Below are positions 47,545 through 55,376 of a stretch of 64,000 bases of DNA, one piece after another. The translations under genes and the position numbers were made by a program. The notes under the pieces are model-generated. The model had not been told where the DNA came from. It was given only the letters and a program-made list of their open reading frames with translations, and ran no database searches. Within the stretch, counting starts at the first letter, position 1. Each line of letters starts with the position of its first letter. The DNA lies in NCBI GenBank assembly GCA_963757765.1, contig CAVWSL010000015.1:1392553-1456552 (forward strand), in the 5' to 3' direction. This stretch comes from an uncultured Chloroflexia bacterium. GTDB taxonomy: Bacteria; Chloroflexota; Limnocylindria; Limnocylindrales; CSP1-4.

Positions 47545-47793
47545 TTGATATTGACAGTTCGCTTCGCTCCTGACGGCCGGGTCTTGGTGCCCGTGGAGTT
47601 GCGCAAGGCCCTGGGCGTGACGCCCGGTGAGCTGCTCGTTGCACGGGTCGTCGACCGGCAGCTGGTCATCGAGCGTCGGGACGACGCACTCCGGCGGCTC
47701 CAGGGTCGATTCTCCAACGTGCCGGCGGGCGTCAGCCTGGCGGATGAGCTCATCGAGGATCGCCACAGGGAGGCCGCCGACGAGGCGTCATGA
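47545..47793 (+). CDS. vapB: AbrB/MazE/SpoVT-type antitoxin (VapB)
   Basis: TTG start. …RVLVPVELRKALGVTPGELLVARVVD… is a swapped-hairpin antitoxin fold. ATGA overlap with the downstream PIN gene. Confidence 0.7.
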   Translation: MILTVRFAPDGRVLVPVELRKALGVTPGELLVARVVDRQLVIERRDDALRRLQGRFSNVPAGVSLADELIEDRHREAADEAS

Positions 47794-48227
47794 GCGCCGA
47801 GTTCGTCGTCGATGCCTCGGCGCTCCTGGCGATCCTCCAGGATGAACCGGGCACCGATGCGGTCGCCATGATCCTGGCTACGTCCGTGGTGTCGGCCGTG
47901 AACTGGTCTGAGGTCGTCCAGAAGGCTCGCAGCCACGGCGTCGAGGTCCGTGGACTGGAAGCGGAGCTCTCAGCGCTCGGGGTCGGGTTCGTGCCGTTCA
48001 CGACCACCGAGGCCACCGTCGCCGCGGATCTCTGGCATCGGGGCGCCCGGAGGTTGGCACTCGCGGATCGAGCCTGCCTGGCGACAGGCCAGGTGCTCGG
48101 GCTGCCGGTCGTCACGGCGGACCGCGCCTGGGCGTCGCTCGACCTCGATATCGAGGTCCGGGTCATTCGTGAGCACCCCCTGGGCCGGGCTGGACGGTCC
48201 CTGCGCCGCCAGGGTCCATCGAGCTGA
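47790..48227 (+). CDS. vapC: PIN-domain toxin (VapC)
   Basis: FVVDASALLAIL…, …LADRACLA…, …VVTADR… acidic PIN residues. Confidence 0.85.
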   Translation: MSAEFVVDASALLAILQDEPGTDAVAMILATSVVSAVNWSEVVQKARSHGVEVRGLEAELSALGVGFVPFTTTEATVAADLWHRGARRLALADRACLATGQVLGLPVVTADRAWASLDLDIEVRVIREHPLGRAGRSLRRQGPSS

Positions 48228-48235
48228 GGACGGGG

Positions 48236-48600
48236 GTGGCCAGGCAGAGCCCGGGAACGATCCGGCGGGCCTGGATCGCCATACCCGTAAGAGCGCGGCA
48301 GCTCGCCGCGTCAGCACCAGGGGCGACCGTCGAGCAGCAGGAGCTGGTCGTGCGAGCAGGGCGAGGCGATCATGACGCGTCTGCCGTGCTCGTCCGTGAC
48401 GCCCTGGTCCGACTCGACGCTGGCGTCCGCCTCATCCTCCGGGACACGGAACTCGCCCGCGACGCTGTCCAGGAGGCACTGGCGCGGGCATGGCGAGATC
48501 TGCCCCGGCTCCGTGAGCTGGAGCGGCTCGCTGCCTGGCTGCACCTCTCACCGTTCGGGCCTCCATCGATGCGGCCCGTGTCCATCGGAGACGACGGCGC
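48236..48600 (+). pseudogene. Truncated ECF sigma-70 factor (region 2 only)
   Basis: …ELVVRAGRGDHDASAVLVRDALVRLDAGVRLILRDTELARDAVQEALARAWRDLPRLRELERLAAWLHL… is a sigma-70 region 2 pattern. Region 4 is absent, and the rest of the 861-aa ORF is antisense to the ABC exporter gene. Confidence 0.4.
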
Positions 48601-48646
48601 GGCCCTGAGACGTACGGGCCACGGCGCCCTCCGCCTGCCCGCGGGA

Positions 48647-50458
48647 TCAGGCGCCGATCGGCTGCAGCGGGGTCGGCTCTCTCCATTGCAACCGGTACAG
48701 CCGCGCGTACAGGCCGTCTTGCGCCAGCAGCTCGGCGTGGGTGCCCAGCTCCACCAGCCAGCCGTCGTCGAGCACCGCGATGCGGTCCGCCCGCCGGATG
48801 GTCGTCAGTCGATGCGCGACCACGATCGTCGTGCGCGACTCCATGAGTCGCTCCAGGGCCTCCTGGACCAGCCGCTCCGACTCGTTGTCGAGGGAGCTGG
48901 TCGCCTCATCGAGGAGCAGGATGCGGGGGTCCTTGAGGATCGCGCGCGCGATGGCGACCCGTTGCCGCTGGCCGCCCGACAGGCGCATGCCACGATCGCC
49001 GATGGTCGTCGCGTACCCCTGGGGCAGGGCCGCGATGAAGTCGTGCGCGTTGGCGCCCCGTGCGGCGGCCTCGATCTGCGCGTCGGTCGCATCCAGTCGT
49101 CCATACGCGATGTTGTCCCGGACCGGACCACCAAAGAGGGTAGCCTCCTGGGGCACGAGGCCGATCGCCTCCCGCAGCTCCCTGACGGTCACCTCGCGGA
49201 CATCGATGCCGTCCACGAGGATGCGCCCACCGGTCACGTCCCAAAGACGGGGGATGAGGTTGCACAACGTCGTCTTGCCGGCGCCCGACGGCCCGACCAC
49301 GGCCAGCACCTCGCCCGGCGCGATATCAAGGTCGATCGAGCGCAGCACGCTGCGCTCCGGGCGGTAGCCGAAGGAGACGGCCTCGAAGGTGATCCGACCG
49401 GCGATCGGGCCGAGTGTGCGGGGCGAGACAGGGTCGACCACGGTCGGCCGCTCATCGAGCAGCTCGAACACCCGCTGGACGGAGCCACTCCCCTCCCGGA
49501 ACTGGCCGTAGAGGCTCGCGAGCGTGCCGAGGCTGCTCCCGATCGCCACGCCATACAGCAGGAACGCGGTCAGCGCCCCCAGGGTCAGGGCGCCGTCGAT
49601 GACCTGGCGTCCCGTGTACCAGAGGATGACGGCCAGGGCCCCGAACCCGAGGAAGGTCATGGCGGCACCGAAAGCGCCCCTCCACGCGATGAGGCGGGTC
49701 GCCAGGCCGACGACGCCGCGAAGGTCGCGGTCATACCGGTGCAGCTCCCAGTCCTCGCGCACGTAGCTCTTGACCACCCGGATGCCGCCCAGCGCCTCCT
49801 CGGCGGTCGTCGTGCTCGTGGCGAGTGCATCCTGGACCTGGGTGCTCAGTCGCTGGAGCGGCCGGCCCACGACCACCGCGATGACGATGAGCGCAGGCGC
49901 GAGCAGCAGCACCAGGAGCAGCAGCGTCGGGCTGGCCAGCAGCAGGATGACCACGGCGCCCACCAGCCCCAGCACCGACGAGAGCATCGAGGTGAGGGTC
50001 TGGGTGAGCATCGTGCGCACCTGGGTCACATCGTTCGAGAGGCGCGAGATGAGCTCCCCGACGCGGCGACCGGCGTGGAACTCCAGCGACAGGGTGACGA
50101 GGCGGGCGTACAGCTGGGACCGCAGATGCGCGACGATGCGTTCACCGGTGACACCCAGGAAGTAGCCCTGGATGAAGCCCGCGATCGCGAGCACTGCCGC
50201 CAGGCCCACCAGCACCAGCACGACCGCGTCCAGGTCCGCGCTGTCGCCGCCAGGCTGCACCGCGCCGACCAGCGTGCCCACCGCGAGTGGCAGCAGCAGC
50301 CCGGCCAGGGTGCTCACGAGGAGTGCCACGAGCGCCGCACTGAACGCCAACAGGTGCGGTCGCAGGTAGCCGAGCAGGCGTCGCCACGGGACCGACGCCA
50401 AGCTCTCGAGGGTCGATGGTGGCGACTCCTCCGCCAGGGACCCGCCCGTGACCGACAT
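48647..50458 (-). CDS. ABC transporter, fused permease/ATP-binding exporter (MsbA/type I exporter-like)
   Basis: N-terminal 6-TM domain plus Walker A GPSGAGKTT, LSGGQRQR and Walker B. Confidence 0.9.
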   Translation of the reverse strand: MSVTGGSLAEESPPSTLESLASVPWRRLLGYLRPHLLAFSAALVALLVSTLAGLLLPLAVGTLVGAVQPGGDSADLDAVVLVLVGLAAVLAIAGFIQGYFLGVTGERIVAHLRSQLYARLVTLSLEFHAGRRVGELISRLSNDVTQVRTMLTQTLTSMLSSVLGLVGAVVILLLASPTLLLLVLLLAPALIVIAVVVGRPLQRLSTQVQDALATSTTTAEEALGGIRVVKSYVREDWELHRYDRDLRGVVGLATRLIAWRGAFGAAMTFLGFGALAVILWYTGRQVIDGALTLGALTAFLLYGVAIGSSLGTLASLYGQFREGSGSVQRVFELLDERPTVVDPVSPRTLGPIAGRITFEAVSFGYRPERSVLRSIDLDIAPGEVLAVVGPSGAGKTTLCNLIPRLWDVTGGRILVDGIDVREVTVRELREAIGLVPQEATLFGGPVRDNIAYGRLDATDAQIEAAARGANAHDFIAALPQGYATTIGDRGMRLSGGQRQRVAIARAILKDPRILLLDEATSSLDNESERLVQEALERLMESRTTIVVAHRLTTIRRADRIAVLDDGWLVELGTHAELLAQDGLYARLYRLQWREPTPLQPIGA

Positions 50459-50460
50459 GG

Positions 50461-53400
50461 TCAGTCCGGCCGGACCGGAGATCCCGCGGTCGTGAGGCTC
50501 GACGCTTCGGATGGTGCTGCGGTGGGCGACGCGGTGGGCAGGCCGCGTAGCAAGGTCAGCGCGCCGATCTCGGTGAGGACCACGCGCGCCTCGTCGGCCG
50601 CGGCCGCTGCGCCGCTCGCGGCGGGTGCGAGCATCGCCCGCGCACGCAGCGCGACGGCCAGGAGGAACCGCAGTCCGCCGGTCCGCAGCGCCCCGATGCC
50701 GGCGTCGACCTGGCCCAAGCCGGCCTCGTCCCCGGTCATCACGCGCACGGCCCCCTCGGCCACGTCCTGCTGCGGGCTCCGGCCGAGCTTCCCCCGATCG
50801 CCGCCCGTCGCCAGGTCGTGACCGATCTCCGTCGCCCGGTCGATGTCGCGCAGCTCGATGGCGACCGCGACCTCGATGAGGTGATAGCCGGTGACGCGGA
50901 GCTCGCGGACCAGGCGATCGGCCTGTCGGCCATGTGCGACAGCCACCTCGAGGTCACCCTCGGCGAAGGCGAGATGTGCCCGACAGTCATTGACGGTCAG
51001 CAGGACCTGCGGGTCACCGACGTCCGGGAACCGGCCATCGAACCGGTCGAGCATCTCGCGTGCGTCGGCACCCCGTCCTCGATAGCTCCGGACGTTGCAG
51101 ACATTCGCCGCGACGCTGAAATCCCAGGCGTTCACCCAGCCGCCCAGCACATCCAGCGACTCGAGCTCGGCTGCCATCGCCTCGACACGGTCGAACCAAC
51201 CCAGCCGGAACGCCGCGTCGCAGGCATTGCCGGCAGCGGCGATGGCCCAACCCTTGTACCCCCGTTCGGCTGCTCGCTTGGCGCCGATCCAGGCGACCTC
51301 GACCGACTCGCTGGGTTCCTCTTCCGCGTTGAAGGCGGTCAGGTTCATGCGGCTGCGCATCTCGGCGCTGAACATGCCCTCCCGCTCGGCGAACACGAGG
51401 CCACCTCGCAGCAGCGCCACGGCTTCGATGGCACGGCCATCAGCGGCGATGGCCCAGCCCTGACTGGGCAACAGCTCCGCGACCACCTCCCGCAGGCCGA
51501 GCCGATCGGCGACCGGCAGGATGCGATCGATGAGCTCCCTCGCTGCGGCCGGCTCGCCACGCATGAGGTAGGCGCGGGCGAGCTCCGCCAGGAGCCGGAT
51601 GCCATCGGGGTCGCGCTCGGCATCGGACCCGATGCGGGCCTGGACACCGGTGGCCGCGGCGACCGCATCGGTGGGTCGGCCGTCGCTGATGATCGCGTTC
51701 GTGAGGATCGTGCCGGCACGAGCGGCCCGATCGAGCTCGCTGCCGGCCAGCGCCGCCTCCACCACCTCGCGCGCGATCGATTCCGCTTCGGCGTATCGCC
51801 CTGCCGCCTGGAGGGCGCTCGCGCGGGCCTCGAGCAGTCGCAAGCGCGTCGCCTCGTCCTCGGCCAGCGGCACCGCATCCGCGATGTGGGCGGCGGCGCT
51901 CGCATGAGCACCGATGGCGCGCGATCGGCTTGCGGCGGCCTCAAGGGCGGCGATCGTGCGCGACACGAGCTCGGCGCGATCCAGGTCATCGGGTGCACCA
52001 CGCAGGGCGCTCAGGTAGTGACTGGCGACGATGCCCGCGAGCTCATCGTTGCCCACCTGCTCGAAGGTCCTGGCGGCAGCGAGGTGGAGCGCCAGCCGGT
52101 CGCGTCGCGACAGGCGGCCATATGCGACGTCCCGGAGCACGCCCTGGATGAATCGGTACTGGCCGCGTTCGGGCGATGCGACGTCGTCCTGGAACTGCAT
52201 CACCTCGCGCTCGACGAGGCTGTCGAGGCTGGCCCGGACATCGGCCTCCGGTCGTTCGGCGAGCGCCGCGAGCGCCCCCACGCTGAAGCTCAGCCCCAGG
52301 ACCGAGGCGACGCCGACCAGCTGTCGGGACGGCTCGTCGAGGGTGTCCAGCCGGGCGCCGATGAGCGACTGCAGCGAATCAGGCACCGCGAGGTCGCCCA
52401 GGTCACTGTCCAGCCGGAACCGGCCACCCGTTTCGCTCAATCGCCCCTGGTCGAGCAGCATCCGGACCGTCTCCACGGCATAGAGCGGGATGCCCTCAGC
52501 GCGATCGCGGATGACCCGGAGGGCAGCCTGCGGGATGCCCGGCACGAGTCCCAGCAGCAGCGACTCCATCGCCTCGTCGGTCAGCGGCGAGAGGTCGAGC
52601 CGAGTGTGGTTGCGCACCGTGGCCCCAAACGTGGGGTGCTGCTCGATGAGCTCCGGGTGGGCGAGCGCGAGCACCAGGATCGGTCGGTTTCGACCCGAGC
52701 CCAGGAGGCCCTCGATGAAGTCGAGCAGGCCCTGATCGGCCCAGTGCAGATCCTCGAACACGAGCACGGTCGGTCCCCGGTCGGCGATGCGCTCGAAGAG
52801 GGTGCGCCAGGCGGCTGTCAGCTCCTGGCTGTTGGTGTTGACCGACCCGTCGAGGCCCAGCAGTGCCGCGAGCTGTGGCTCCACTCGTGCCCGCTCATCA
52901 GCATCCGGCAGGTACTCAAGGGCCATCTCGGTGAGCTTGCTCCGGGCGACGACCGGGGGATCCGATTCCGCGATCCGTGCTCGACCCCGGACCATCTCGC
53001 CCAGGGCCCAGAACGCGAGGCCATCGCCGTACGCCGGCGACCGGCCCTGGTGCCAGTAGATGTCCTCGACGACGCCGTCGATGTATTTCTCCAGCTCCCA
53101 GGCGAGGCGGGACTTGCCGATGCCCGCGATACCCAGAACGGACACGAGGCGAGCCCGACGATCGCGGGCGGTCGCATGGAGCAGCTCCTTGAGCAGCCGC
53201 AGCTCATCGTCGCGGCCCACGAAAGGGGCCTCAAGCCGGGTGGACCGGCCGTATCCGCCACGCCCGGCGACGACCCGCACCGCGCGCCACGCGGGCACGG
53301 GCAGCTGCTTGCCACGCAGCAGCTGCTCCCCCACAGGCTCGTAGGCGATGGCCGATTCTGACGCCCGGACCGTGGCCTCGCCCACCAGCACCGACCCTGG

Positions 53401-54033
53401 TGGTGCGACCGACTGGAGGCGGGACGCGGTATTCACCAGGTCGCCCGCCACCATCCCCTGGCCGTCGACGGCGAGGGAAACGGCGGCCTCGCCCGTGAGG
53501 ACCGCGCATCGGGCGGTCACGACCGACCCATCGGGCGTGCGCAGGGCACTCACGGCATCGAGCAGGTCGACCGCGGCACGCACCGCCCGCTCGGCGTCGT
53601 CCTCGTGCGCCACGGGCGTGCCCCAGACGGCCATCACGGCATCACCGATGAATTTCTCGATGGTGCCGCCATAGCGGTCGATGCGCTCGCGCGCGAGCGC
53701 GAAGTACCCGTCCAGGAACTCCCGCACCGCTTCCGGGTCGCGGTCGTCGGCCAGCGAGGTGAAGCCCACGAGGTCGGTGAACAGGACGCTCACGATGCGC
53801 CGCTCCGTGACCCGGCTGGCGCCAGACACGGCCGCCGGTTGGCTGCCGGTCGGACGGGCTCCCGGCGCGAGCGCCTGCCCGCACTCGTTGCAGAACCGGG
53901 CGCCGGCGCGGTTGATGGCTCCGCACGACGGACAGCCCGTCTGCAGCGCGCTACCGCATCCGTTGCAGAACCGCGCGCCGACCTGGTTGTCGGTGCCACA
54001 GTTGGCGCAGATCACCTGCTCGCTCGCTCCCAT
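50461..54033 (-). CDS. Large signalling ATPase: double zinc-ribbon + class III adenylyl/guanylyl cyclase + AAA/NB-ARC-like NTPase + TPR/helical repeats (no LuxR HTH)
   Basis: Start at Met 134 (54033, RBS AGGTCGGAG; alternative GTG 54036). Two CxxC…CxxC ribbons (ICANCGTDNQVGARFCNGCG; CPSCGAINRAGARFCNECG). Cyclase core …VLFTDLVGFT…GTIEKFIGDAVMAVWG… P-loop GIAGIGKSRLA. A long alpha-helical repeat C-terminus. The stop lies 3 nt before the start of the ABC exporter. Confidence 0.85.
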   Translation of the reverse strand: MGASEQVICANCGTDNQVGARFCNGCGSALQTGCPSCGAINRAGARFCNECGQALAPGARPTGSQPAAVSGASRVTERRIVSVLFTDLVGFTSLADDRDPEAVREFLDGYFALARERIDRYGGTIEKFIGDAVMAVWGTPVAHEDDAERAVRAAVDLLDAVSALRTPDGSVVTARCAVLTGEAAVSLAVDGQGMVAGDLVNTASRLQSVAPPGSVLVGEATVRASESAIAYEPVGEQLLRGKQLPVPAWRAVRVVAGRGGYGRSTRLEAPFVGRDDELRLLKELLHATARDRRARLVSVLGIAGIGKSRLAWELEKYIDGVVEDIYWHQGRSPAYGDGLAFWALGEMVRGRARIAESDPPVVARSKLTEMALEYLPDADERARVEPQLAALLGLDGSVNTNSQELTAAWRTLFERIADRGPTVLVFEDLHWADQGLLDFIEGLLGSGRNRPILVLALAHPELIEQHPTFGATVRNHTRLDLSPLTDEAMESLLLGLVPGIPQAALRVIRDRAEGIPLYAVETVRMLLDQGRLSETGGRFRLDSDLGDLAVPDSLQSLIGARLDTLDEPSRQLVGVASVLGLSFSVGALAALAERPEADVRASLDSLVEREVMQFQDDVASPERGQYRFIQGVLRDVAYGRLSRRDRLALHLAAARTFEQVGNDELAGIVASHYLSALRGAPDDLDRAELVSRTIAALEAAASRSRAIGAHASAAAHIADAVPLAEDEATRLRLLEARASALQAAGRYAEAESIAREVVEAALAGSELDRAARAGTILTNAIISDGRPTDAVAAATGVQARIGSDAERDPDGIRLLAELARAYLMRGEPAAARELIDRILPVADRLGLREVVAELLPSQGWAIAADGRAIEAVALLRGGLVFAEREGMFSAEMRSRMNLTAFNAEEEPSESVEVAWIGAKRAAERGYKGWAIAAAGNACDAAFRLGWFDRVEAMAAELESLDVLGGWVNAWDFSVAANVCNVRSYRGRGADAREMLDRFDGRFPDVGDPQVLLTVNDCRAHLAFAEGDLEVAVAHGRQADRLVRELRVTGYHLIEVAVAIELRDIDRATEIGHDLATGGDRGKLGRSPQQDVAEGAVRVMTGDEAGLGQVDAGIGALRTGGLRFLLAVALRARAMLAPAASGAAAAADEARVVLTEIGALTLLRGLPTASPTAAPSEASSLTTAGSPVRPD

Positions 54034-54080: not shown

Positions 54081-54668
54081 ATGCAGGACCGAGCGGAGGA
54101 TGCGTTGGACGACGAGCACCCGGGCCGGGAAGATGGGCCACTGGCCCTGGTCGTCGACGACCTCGTCCTTCGCCCGTGGCGAGCGACCGATGTCGAGGCG
54201 GTCCTGGAAGCCTGCCAGGACCCGGACATCGGGCGCTGGGTGAACATCCCACAGCCGTTCGGTGCAGCCGAGGCTGCCGCGTTCGTGGAGGGCGCGATCC
54301 GCATGTGGCGCGACGGGACGGGTGCTGCGTTCGCCATCGAAGACACGCCGGGGTCGCTGCTGGGGGCGGTGACCCGCTTCGGCCCGGATGGCCACACCGC
54401 CACGGTCGGCCTCTGGCTGGTGGCCGCGGCACGCGGCCGGGGCGTCGGCACCCGGGCGCTCCGGCGATTGGTGGACTGGACGTTCTCGACCACGGATGTC
54501 ATCCGGATGGAGGCGTTCATCATGGCCGGCAACGACGCTTCGGACCGCATGGTGGAACGGGTCGGCTTCCGGCGCGAAGGCCTGTTGCGCGCTTGGGACC
54601 TCGATCGCAGCGGCAGGCCTGTGGACTGCGTCGCCTGGTCGTTGCTTCGAGGCGAGCTGCCGAGGTAG
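54081..54668 (+). CDS. GNAT-family N-acetyltransferase (RimJ/RimL-like)
   Basis: …LVLRPWRATDVEAVLEA…, …RGRGVGTRALRRLVDWTF…; 195 aa. Confidence 0.8.
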   Translation: MQDRAEDALDDEHPGREDGPLALVVDDLVLRPWRATDVEAVLEACQDPDIGRWVNIPQPFGAAEAAAFVEGAIRMWRDGTGAAFAIEDTPGSLLGAVTRFGPDGHTATVGLWLVAAARGRGVGTRALRRLVDWTFSTTDVIRMEAFIMAGNDASDRMVERVGFRREGLLRAWDLDRSGRPVDCVAWSLLRGELPR

Positions 54669-54800: not shown

Positions 54801-55376
54801 TCACTGTGGTGCCAGAACGCAACGCTCGAGCACGATCGACACCGATCGACACCGATCCGACCAGGACCTTCGCCGGCATCGTCTGGTGCGTTTCGACATC
54901 GGCACCCAGCAACCGCGTCGCGAGCCAGGCCCTCCCGGCACGGGTGACCGCCTCCGCGCCCCTGAACGAGACATCGCCCTGCAGTTCCAGCAGGATCGCG
55001 TCCCGGCCCCGGGCGGACAGGTGGGCGCGTCGAGTGCGGCCGCATAGACCAGCGGCTTGGACAACGACTGGAGCGTGAACTGCTGACGGGTGTCGCCCGC
55101 CTCATAGATGGCTCCATCGACCGTCGCGACGCAGATCCCGAACAGCTCGGGATCCATCCCCGCGAGTTCCGGGATGTAGGTCGCGACCGCGCCGTCGCGC
55201 AGCGGGACATGACGGTCGTGGATCCGCTCCAGCCACGCGGCGACCGGTGACGGCGACGAGGCCGGTGGGCCGTGGGATCCGCGCGCGAGGACGTGCGGCA
55301 CGGTCAGCTGCGGCGGGATCGGCGCCAGGGGCGCGCGCCGCATCGACTCCCCGTATCCATCCTGGGGCAGGGTCAT
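54801..55376 (-). pseudogene. glsA: Glutaminase (GlsA) N-terminal remnant
   Basis: …GAVATYIPELAGMDPELFGICVATVDGAIYEAGDTRQQFTLQSLSKPLVYAAALD… is collinear with glutaminase A residues about 20-110 and covers only 55029-55376. Downstream, none of the three minus-strand frames continues the family, and the gene is less than half its normal length. A CGATCGACAC duplication lies at about 54836. Confidence 0.5.

Follow-up and report, generated by a model that had tools for sequence, protein, structure and literature searches.

Several described systems bear on the locus analyzed here. The mycobacterial Mclx proteins combine a cyclase, an NB-ARC/AAA ATPase, TPRs and a LuxR-type helix-turn-helix (HTH), and the fusion of a cyclase with a LuxR domain is described as nearly exclusive to mycobacteria (PMC4452763). 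Conflict systems also include cNMP cyclases (PMC7159879). The window examined is a 64,000-nt stretch of a contig (CAVWSL010000015.1) assembled from an uncultured Chloroflexia bacterium. A first-pass annotation of this DNA had singled out a giant gene, an exporter gene abutting it and a sigma factor fragment; all three are present, with small corrections to their coordinates. We consider it very probable that the giant gene encodes a stand-alone sensor cyclase of an ordinary type, that the exporter adjoins it at a lineage-specific operon junction and that the sigma fragment reflects local gene decay. The locus holds no new kind of system.

The giant gene (50461 to 54033, minus strand) encodes a zinc-ribbon/class III cyclase/STAND ATPase/TPR protein of 1190 residues from an ATG at 54033, and a public collection contains an identical protein, P0001. 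A GTG at 54015 (1184 residues) is an equally plausible start; it agrees with the family consensus MxCxxCG and with the start called in a close relative, L001 (90% amino acid identity). In the numbering of the 1190-residue protein, residues 9 through 52 (53878 to 54009, minus strand) form a double zinc ribbon (Pfam DZR, 41.3 bits against a cut-off of 27.3; also matched by Zn_Ribbon_1 and DUF7577) with cysteines C9-x2-C12...C23-x2-C26 and C34-x2-C37...C48-x2-C51. Residues 80 through 243 (53305 to 53796, minus strand) are identified as a class III nucleotide cyclase catalytic domain by Guanylate_cyc (PF00211; 67.1 bits against 21.9, E = 1.9e-18). They are followed by a STAND-type P-loop NTPase at residues 270 through 454 (52672 to 53226, minus strand; AAA_16, 73.2 bits against 32.6, E = 4.7e-20), which has both P-loop motifs, Walker A (GIAGIGKS, residues 301 through 308) and Walker B (VLVFED, residues 423 through 428).

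Pfam TPR matches all fall below their cut-offs (TPR_19, 21.7 against 25; TPR_MalT, 16.9 against 45). The AlphaFold2 model shows a TPR-like superhelix of stacked helical hairpins over residues 641 through 1162 (50548 to 52113, minus strand), with ∼26 paired helices in ∼520 residues and pLDDT mostly above 90. The closest PDB fold match of the model is the STAND-TPR protein 6MFV (E = 2e-8), with class III cyclases next. Taken together, the model and this match predict a C-terminal TPR domain of the sensor type, and the superhelix is presumed to be the sensor. The domain order proposed in the first-pass annotation is thus borne out by the Pfam domains and the model. So is its remark that the protein has no C-terminal HTH: neither the real frame nor the two other frames of the 3′ 1.2 kb of the gene yield a GerE/LuxR domain.

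Catalytic positions were assigned by alignment to 2W01 and 3R5G. The metal-binding Asp pair (D87 and D131) and the transition-state Asn and Arg (N201 and R205) are all present, and the cyclase domain matches Cya2, CyaB, Rv1625c and CyaC among PDB sequences, down to E = 1.8e-16, in agreement with the fold search of the model. The substrate-specifying pair consists of K127, invariant in an alignment of 29 sequences (homologs of 46 to 75% identity), and Met194, which is nearly invariant there; characterized adenylyl cyclases have Asp or Thr at the latter position. The conserved adenine-contacting Lys makes cAMP the likeliest candidate product, with Met194 speaking against a firm assignment from sequence. 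D87, D131, N201 and R205 are also invariant in this alignment, as are the NTPase residues G301, G304 through K307 (the Walker A GK) and the Walker B E427; in the ribbon, C48 and C51 never vary and C34 and C37 almost never do.

The protein is an intact, ordinary example of the soluble sensor cyclases that form a very large family in soil Chloroflexota ("Limnocylindria"-type metagenome-assembled genomes) and Actinomycetota. In a homolog search all 8000 scored candidates reached E ≤ 1e-10, and the best 120 are mostly 1100 to 1210 residues long. By our own count, roughly two thirds of these 120 share the ribbon domains, and GerE (PF00196) occurs in none. The zinc-ribbon/cyclase/ATPase/TPR arrangement without an HTH is therefore the usual form in both phyla: the first-pass annotation had taken the HTH to be lost and the ribbon to be gained, and neither description is supported, given the count of zero in 120, the described near restriction of cyclase-LuxR fusions to mycobacteria (PMC4452763), the frequency of the ribbons and the invariance of C48 and C51. 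Identity to the homologs drops along the protein, from 0.74 in the cyclase and 0.71 in the NTPase to 0.34 over residues 901 through 1165, and the TPR-like region is its least conserved part. In other genomes, paralogs of the protein form tandem arrays. The literature searched yielded no experimentally studied member of the family.

By analogy with MalT and other STAND proteins, the variable C-terminal superhelix would bind a ligand or protein, and binding would lift autoinhibition of the STAND ATPase. Dimerization is obligate for class III cyclases. Nucleotide-dependent oligomerization might, by the same analogy, pair the N-terminal cyclase domains as active dimers that make cyclic nucleotide, so that the protein would signal through the second messenger itself instead of through DNA binding. 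In this family the N-terminal double zinc ribbon is a standard addition.

Directly behind the giant gene lies a 603-residue ABC exporter gene (48647 to 50458, minus strand) of the ABCB-type (type IV) half-transporter class (ABC_membrane, 192 bits; ABC_tran, 114 bits), whose PDB relatives include ABCB10, Sav1866 and BmrA. Assignment as MsbA (TIGR02203; 518.9 against a cut-off of 602) or as MsbA_rel (TIGR02204; 594.7 against 780.4) was rejected, and by its profile scores the exporter can be classed only as generic ABCB-type. Only the letters CC separate the giant-gene stop TGA from the exporter ATG, a spacer of 2 nt where 3 nt had been reported. No terminator-like site was found between the genes, and the two are probably co-transcribed.

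This arrangement is what had suggested a rewired signaling/export module. As a real lineage-specific unit it would couple production of a cyclic nucleotide to export: cAMP might be what the exporter pumps out, or the exporter's substrate might be what the TPR region senses. The 2-nt stop-start gap is kept in both the window and L001, lineages about 0.5 apart in dS, and nothing resembling a terminator interrupts it. Both genes are under purifying selection (dN/dS against L001: giant gene, 0.12; exporter, about 0.09), so both are functional. Against a module, the comparison with relatives recovers the junction in L001 and nowhere else, whichever gene it is viewed from: none of 80 genome loci has an MsbA-like gene directly downstream of the cyclase homolog on the same strand, the exporter neighbor is absent at homologs of 76, 72 and 71% identity, and the cyclase neighbor is absent at exporter orthologs of 83, 81 and 75% identity. 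The exporter is better conserved than the cyclase and has unrelated contexts in other genomes, as would a general housekeeping exporter. Compact bacterial genomes abound in short or overlapping gene junctions, which on their own are no sign of shared function. We therefore regard a signaling/export module as unlikely; the pairing is a lineage-specific operon junction, a local accident of gene order. The exporter is a well-conserved gene of the lineage; a recent rearrangement, which only the closest relative shares, would have put it 2 nt behind the giant gene.

An immune role for the giant protein was weighed as well. It might be an NLR- or Avs-like sensor with a Pycsar-like cyclase as effector, in which the TPR region recognizes a phage protein, the STAND domain oligomerizes and the cyclase raises a cyclic-nucleotide alarm for a separately encoded effector. 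The order of effector, STAND and variable TPR regions parallels that of Avs proteins, the C terminus diverges fast, paralogs stand in tandem elsewhere, toxin-antitoxin genes flank the locus, and conflict systems are known to use cNMP cyclases (PMC7159879). PADLOC PycC models do match the cyclase domain (best E = 1.9e-15), but more weakly than the generic Pfam class III profile and only across the shared catalytic fold. The adenine-type Lys is invariant across the 29 homologs, the abundance and copy number of the family are like those of ordinary signaling proteins, and when all neighboring ORFs were clustered the most widespread gene family did not exceed 11 of ∼80 loci, so that no effector gene is conserved beside family members. 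An immune function of this protein is accordingly very unlikely. We give just as little credence to its extension to the whole zinc-ribbon/cyclase/STAND/TPR family as an NLR-like sensor class with cyclic-nucleotide output, in which Avs-type and Pycsar-type logic are fused. If that were true, the tandem paralogs and fast-evolving TPR ends would reflect an arms race, and the window copy would be one receptor beside an exporter that is irrelevant or merely co-expressed.

The sigma fragment (48329 to 48598, plus strand) converges on the exporter gene and is a pseudogene of an ECF sigma factor that retains region 2 only. The truncation reported earlier is real, with a region 2 match and no region 4; its left edge had been placed at 48236, and homology to L001 spans 48329 to 48598. 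Position 48236 is merely the first GTG of a mechanical 861-residue ORF, which continues through the exporter gene in antisense. Sigma70_r2 is matched (E = 4e-9, 36.6 bits against a cut-off of 24) only after two frames are joined across a 1-nt frameshift, and the remnant is 85% identical to residues 1 through 72 of the intact L001 sigma factor. The start codon, GTG in L001, is GTC here, and 1 nt is missing between 48545 and 48546, inside region 2. Beyond the remnant, a scar defined from blastn block structure, L001 ORFs and nucleotide alignments leaves 46 nt (48599 to 48644) in place of 1127 nt in L001 (13379 to 14505), which encode sigma region 4 and a 263-residue membrane protein.

L001 has an intact 187-residue sigma factor, with regions 2 and 4 in one frame as an ECF sigma factor should have and the remnant does not, overlapping by 4 nt the gene for this single-pass membrane protein; a third relative likewise has an intact sigma factor and a 271-residue gene. 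In the window, no plus-strand frame of 48560 to 49400 contains a region 4 or anti-sigma piece, which the first-pass annotation had proposed to look for near 48550 to 48650, and tblastn with the 263-residue protein gave no match. Because that protein has no recognizable anti-sigma Pfam domain, an anti-sigma label would follow from position alone. The first-pass suggestion of a decayed sigma/partner unit is thus supported, since the intact pair of L001 lies exactly at the 46-nt scar. The start-codon change, the 1-nt deletion and the ∼1.1-kb deletion destroyed the ECF sigma gene and its partner here. Taken alone, the frameshift might stem from faulty assembly, an explanation that does not extend to the ∼1.1-kb deletion. 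A working role for the truncated product, such as that of a decoy competing for an anti-sigma factor or the RNA polymerase core, is exceedingly improbable: the 72 alignable codons have a dN/dS of 0.14 against the intact ortholog and the GTG at 48236 is upstream and in frame, but so low a ratio over 72 codons fits recent inactivation, the frame past the frameshift runs antisense into the exporter gene, and the lesions are three and independent (the changed start codon, the frameshift within region 2, and the missing region 4 and partner gene).

Directly upstream of the remnant, and syntenic in L001, are genes for a VapB-like antitoxin (47545 to 47793, plus strand; a weak MazE_antitoxin match of 22.3 bits, under the 24.7 cut-off) and a PIN/VapC toxin (47790 to 48227, plus strand; Pfam PIN, E = 5e-14). 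On the other side, a GNAT acetyltransferase gene (54081 to 54668, plus strand; Acetyltransf_3, E = 1e-24) diverges from the giant gene across a 47-nt spacer and is the sole neighbor that still adjoins it in the 76% homolog. Farther out is the remnant of a glutaminase-STAS-cNMP-binding gene (54940 to 55376, minus strand), found by tblastn with the 650-residue L001 product (residues 1 through 117 at 55376 to 55026; residues 372 through 404 at 55038 to 54940). It marks a second deletion in the same neighborhood, which, having lost this gene as it lost the sigma/partner pair, is shedding genes.

The weight of these results is slight. A false lead is removed, in that the architecture is neither a rewired nor a degraded LuxR-type regulator. 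Zinc-ribbon/STAND/TPR sensor cyclases are among the commonest large signaling proteins of soil Chloroflexota and Actinomycetota, and that so abundant a family lacks a studied member in the literature searched is of modest value. The locus is also a clean example of gene decay, in which the sigma/partner pair and the cNMP-binding glutaminase gene of a sister lineage have both been deleted.

Comparison with known systems places each component. In the exporter, as in MsbA, Sav1866, BmrA and ABCB10, a six-helix ABC_membrane domain is paired with an ABC_tran domain, whose Walker A, signature and Walker B motifs are all intact; the exporter differs from MsbA in scoring below both equivalog cut-offs. 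The L001 pair has the classic layout of an ECF sigma factor co-transcribed with a membrane partner, whereas the window keeps just a frameshifted region 2. A Pycsar cyclase would make a pyrimidine cyclic nucleotide and adjoin a gene for a cNMP-activated effector; here the PycC models recognize the catalytic fold only, and no effector is conserved nearby. The cyclase/AAA/helical-repeat core resembles that of TOMM kinase/cyclase fusions (TIGR03903), residues 65 through 716 aligning with model positions 269 through 919; membership was rejected, the score of 219.8 bits being far under the 705.75 cut-off and the N-terminal kinase domain absent, and the neighborhood contains no RiPP/TOMM biosynthesis genes. 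With MalT-type STAND-TPR proteins (6MFV) the giant protein shares a Walker A/B P-loop NTPase with a helical arm and then a long TPR superhelix behind it, but a nucleotide cyclase takes the place of a DNA-binding output domain. It is only 14% identical in sequence to 6MFV, and because the domain arrangement differs the global TM-score is low, at 0.19 to 0.31.

In domain order the giant protein resembles Mclx proteins (Rv0386, Rv1358 and Rv2488c), which are likewise soluble and have an N-terminal class III cyclase followed by an AAA/NB-ARC-type ATPase and helical repeats (PMC4452763). The giant protein departs from them in having no C-terminal LuxR/GerE HTH and an extra N-terminal double zinc ribbon, and was rejected as an Mclx or LAL-type LuxR-family regulator on the frame and homolog searches for GerE. 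Rv0386 has Gln/Asn at its substrate position, where the giant protein has the canonical Lys. Since cyclase-LuxR fusions are described as nearly exclusive to mycobacteria, the protein falls within a wider group that has no HTH and does not represent a degraded Mclx.

The window has a G+C content of ∼70%, and codon-position G+C was used to tell real genes from many mechanical ORFs. The locus is built around the gene for a 1190-residue protein (50461 through 54033, reverse strand; herein the giant protein) and a 603-residue ABC exporter gene directly downstream (48647 through 50458, reverse strand). On the exporter side lie a VapB-like antitoxin (47545 through 47793, forward), a PIN/VapC toxin (47790 through 48227, forward), and the remnant of an ECF sigma gene (48329 through 48598, forward). 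On the other side are a GNAT acetyltransferase gene divergent from the giant gene (54081 through 54668, forward), a glutaminase gene remnant (54940 through 55376, reverse), and an ArsR-AHSA1 regulator (55494 through 56264, reverse); farther neighbors are unrelated metabolic and transport genes. Position 48236, the left edge chosen by the first-pass annotation, is only where a mechanical ORF running antisense through the exporter has its first GTG. Toxin-antitoxin genes are common around 47545 through 58786, with a second PIN-domain gene (58241 through 58786, reverse; E = 1.8e-10) <10 kb from the VapBC pair (47545 through 48227). A 973-residue fusion (59376 through 62297, forward) joins an NDP-forming acyl-CoA synthetase (CoA_binding, Succ_CoA_lig, ATP-grasp_5) to a C-terminal GNAT, a layout that we take to be that of Pat-type protein acetyltransferases.

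Pfam places a double zinc ribbon (residues 9 through 52), a class III cyclase domain (80 through 243), and a STAND-type AAA_16 ATPase (270 through 454) in the giant protein, with only subthreshold TPR matches after residue 780. An AlphaFold2 model built from a 29-sequence alignment (mean pLDDT 79) reveals a confident run of ∼26 paired helices between residues 641 and 1162, followed by a disordered C-terminal tail without an extra domain; among PDB structures, 6MFV (a STAND-TPR protein) matches it best, with class III cyclases ranking next. No variation is seen across 29 homologs (46 to 75% identity) at D87 and D131 (metal binding), K127 (substrate), N201 and R205 (transition state), the Walker A GK (306 and 307), or the Walker B E427. 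The other position that determines substrate choice is occupied by methionine (M194), which hardly varies, so the nucleotide made is not certain. Conservation scores drop along the protein, from 0.74 (cyclase) to 0.34 (distal repeats), as is usual for a sensor domain. The gene is functional, since its dN/dS is 0.12 against the closest relative, the syntenic locus L001. Its real start may be GTG 54015, which yields MICANCG, fits the MxCxxCG consensus of the family, and agrees with the L001 start call. Depending on the start (54033 or 54015), only 47 to 65 nt separate it from the divergent GNAT gene, a spacing that could reflect leaderless or overlapping divergent promoters.

The giant gene and the exporter abut (TGA-CC-ATG), with the exporter start 2 nt past the giant-gene stop, and a scan of 46 to 57 kb found no terminator between them, no sigma-70-like promoters, and no Rfam match to structured RNAs. 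The exporter, an ordinary ABCB-type half-transporter, does not reach the cut-off of either MsbA or MsbA_rel. Its conservation is strong: many MAGs carry orthologs of 68 to 83% identity, and its dN/dS is ∼0.09 against L001. In L001 the adjacency is present, the giant protein is 90% identical, and synteny extends over at least 12 kb. Co-transcription of the pair is likely in the lineage of the window and L001. A same-strand exporter directly downstream was found at none of 80 genome loci with giant-protein homologs of 36 to 65% identity, nor on three contigs of metagenomic homologs (76, 72, and 71%); reciprocally, three contigs carrying exporter orthologs (83, 81, and 75%) have no cyclase nearby. 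All-against-all clustering of flanking ORFs from the 80 loci gave no conserved partner, the commonest cluster being generic ABC ATPases (11 of ∼80 loci). The near-abutment of the two genes is thus confirmed, but the comparison does not support a conserved signaling/export module, the adjacency being confined to the window and L001. That the two genes form a lineage-specific functional module is unlikely; the operon junction is recent, and the exporter is of a common kind.

For the giant protein itself, a mechanism can be proposed in which the TPR superhelix would bind a ligand, relieving autoinhibition of the STAND ATPase; nucleotide-dependent oligomerization could then pair cyclase domains into active dimers that would produce a cyclic nucleotide, probably cAMP. 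The family expands locally: head-to-tail tandem arrays of two to four paralogs occur at homolog loci L036, L060, L074, L014, L018, and L032, in MAGs of other Chloroflexota, Actinomycetota, and Gaiellales. Such arrays, together with the variable C terminus and weak PycC matches of the cyclase, would be consistent with an immune sensor of the NLR type whose cyclase output resembles that of Pycsar, but neither a conserved effector nor other supporting evidence was found, and we regard this reading as improbable. PADLOC did not place either gene in a defense system: it returned only PycC catalytic-fold matches for the cyclase and generic ABC-ATPase matches for the exporter.

The sigma fragment, for which decay was one of the two readings first offered, is a pseudogene left by a deletion. 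Its region 2 match is significant (E = 4e-9, two frames joined across a frameshift), and L001 holds an intact counterpart of 187 residues with regions 2 and 4, overlapping by 4 nt the gene of a 263-residue single-pass membrane protein, a candidate anti-sigma factor by position, without a recognized domain. Aligned with L001 at the nucleotide level, the window carries three lesions: GTC replaces the orthologous GTG start codon (48329); a single nucleotide has been lost between 48545 and 48546; and 46 nt (48599 through 48644) stand in place of 1127 nt, removing region 4 and the entire partner gene. A region 4 or anti-sigma fragment was found neither in the other frames of 48560 through 49400 nor by tblastn with the 263-residue protein. 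The 1.1-kb deletion is secure, whereas the 1-nt deletion by itself may be an assembly error; a functional truncated sigma factor is very unlikely. A dN/dS of 0.14 over the remaining 72 codons suggests that inactivation was recent. Deletion in the window lineage is the parsimonious direction, because a third relative (76% identity) also keeps the sigma pair intact. On the contig of that homolog (P0003; JGI 3300075153), the ECF sigma gene (183 residues) and a 271-residue gene adjoin the GNAT-cyclase pair, whose orientation is reversed compared with the window. This contig lacks an exporter; of the two neighbors, the sigma pair may be the older. A 78-codon antisense ORF over the remnant (48311 through 48547, reverse; third-position G+C 0.92) is not a gene, its G+C reflecting the very G+C-rich first codon positions of the sigma frame; at ∼70% G+C, frame statistics are misleading when ORFs are short.

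Most of a second gene kept by L001 has also been lost from the window. L001 has an intact 650-residue glutaminase-STAS-cNMP-binding gene (3723 through 5675), three genes from its cyclase and possibly encoding a cAMP-regulated enzyme; only residues 1 through 117 and 372 through 404 survive in the window remnant. A PhdYeFM antitoxin/PIN toxin pair between the GNAT and glutaminase genes of L001 (6672 through 7330) is absent from the window; gene loss in the window lineage therefore extends to several genes over these 10 kb. The giant ORF of L001 (8001 through 11562) is broken into pieces of 1020 and 151 residues, and its exporter (11565 through 13376) is out of frame around residues 376 through 460; codons flanking these breaks have a dN/dS of ∼0.1, and the breaks are probably long-read assembly indels, not real decay.

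The giant protein had been described as lacking the usual LuxR HTH and as having gained a zinc ribbon; neither description fits its relatives. Among the best 120 of 8000 scored homologs (all E ≤ 1e-10), most span 1100 to 1210 residues, none contains GerE, and about two-thirds, by our count, carry the same zinc-ribbon domains. An HTH hidden behind a frameshift was rejected, as Pfam scans of the 3′ end gave no GerE match in the true frame or the two alternative frames. Named sources of the family are MAGs of Chloroflexota, Candidatus Limnocylindria/Limnocylindrales, Dormibacter-type, Gaiellales, Acidimicrobiia, and Solirubrobacterales. As the best 120 homologs lack GerE and the cyclase-LuxR combination is described as nearly exclusive to mycobacteria (PMC4452763), the protein is a typical member of a widespread HTH-less group. 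Literature searches for the exact zinc-ribbon/cyclase/STAND/TPR architecture turned up nothing beyond studies of mycobacterial Mclx proteins and general papers on STAND proteins or conflict systems. A TOMM/RiPP context was rejected, the neighbors being MFS, glyoxalase, ferredoxin-reductase-like, DinB, FAA hydrolase, and the like, none of them biosynthetic. Against the TOMM kinase/cyclase family the giant protein scores under the cut-off, and it has none of that family's kinase domain; it is a new addition to a known family of sensor cyclases, none of which is known to have been studied experimentally.
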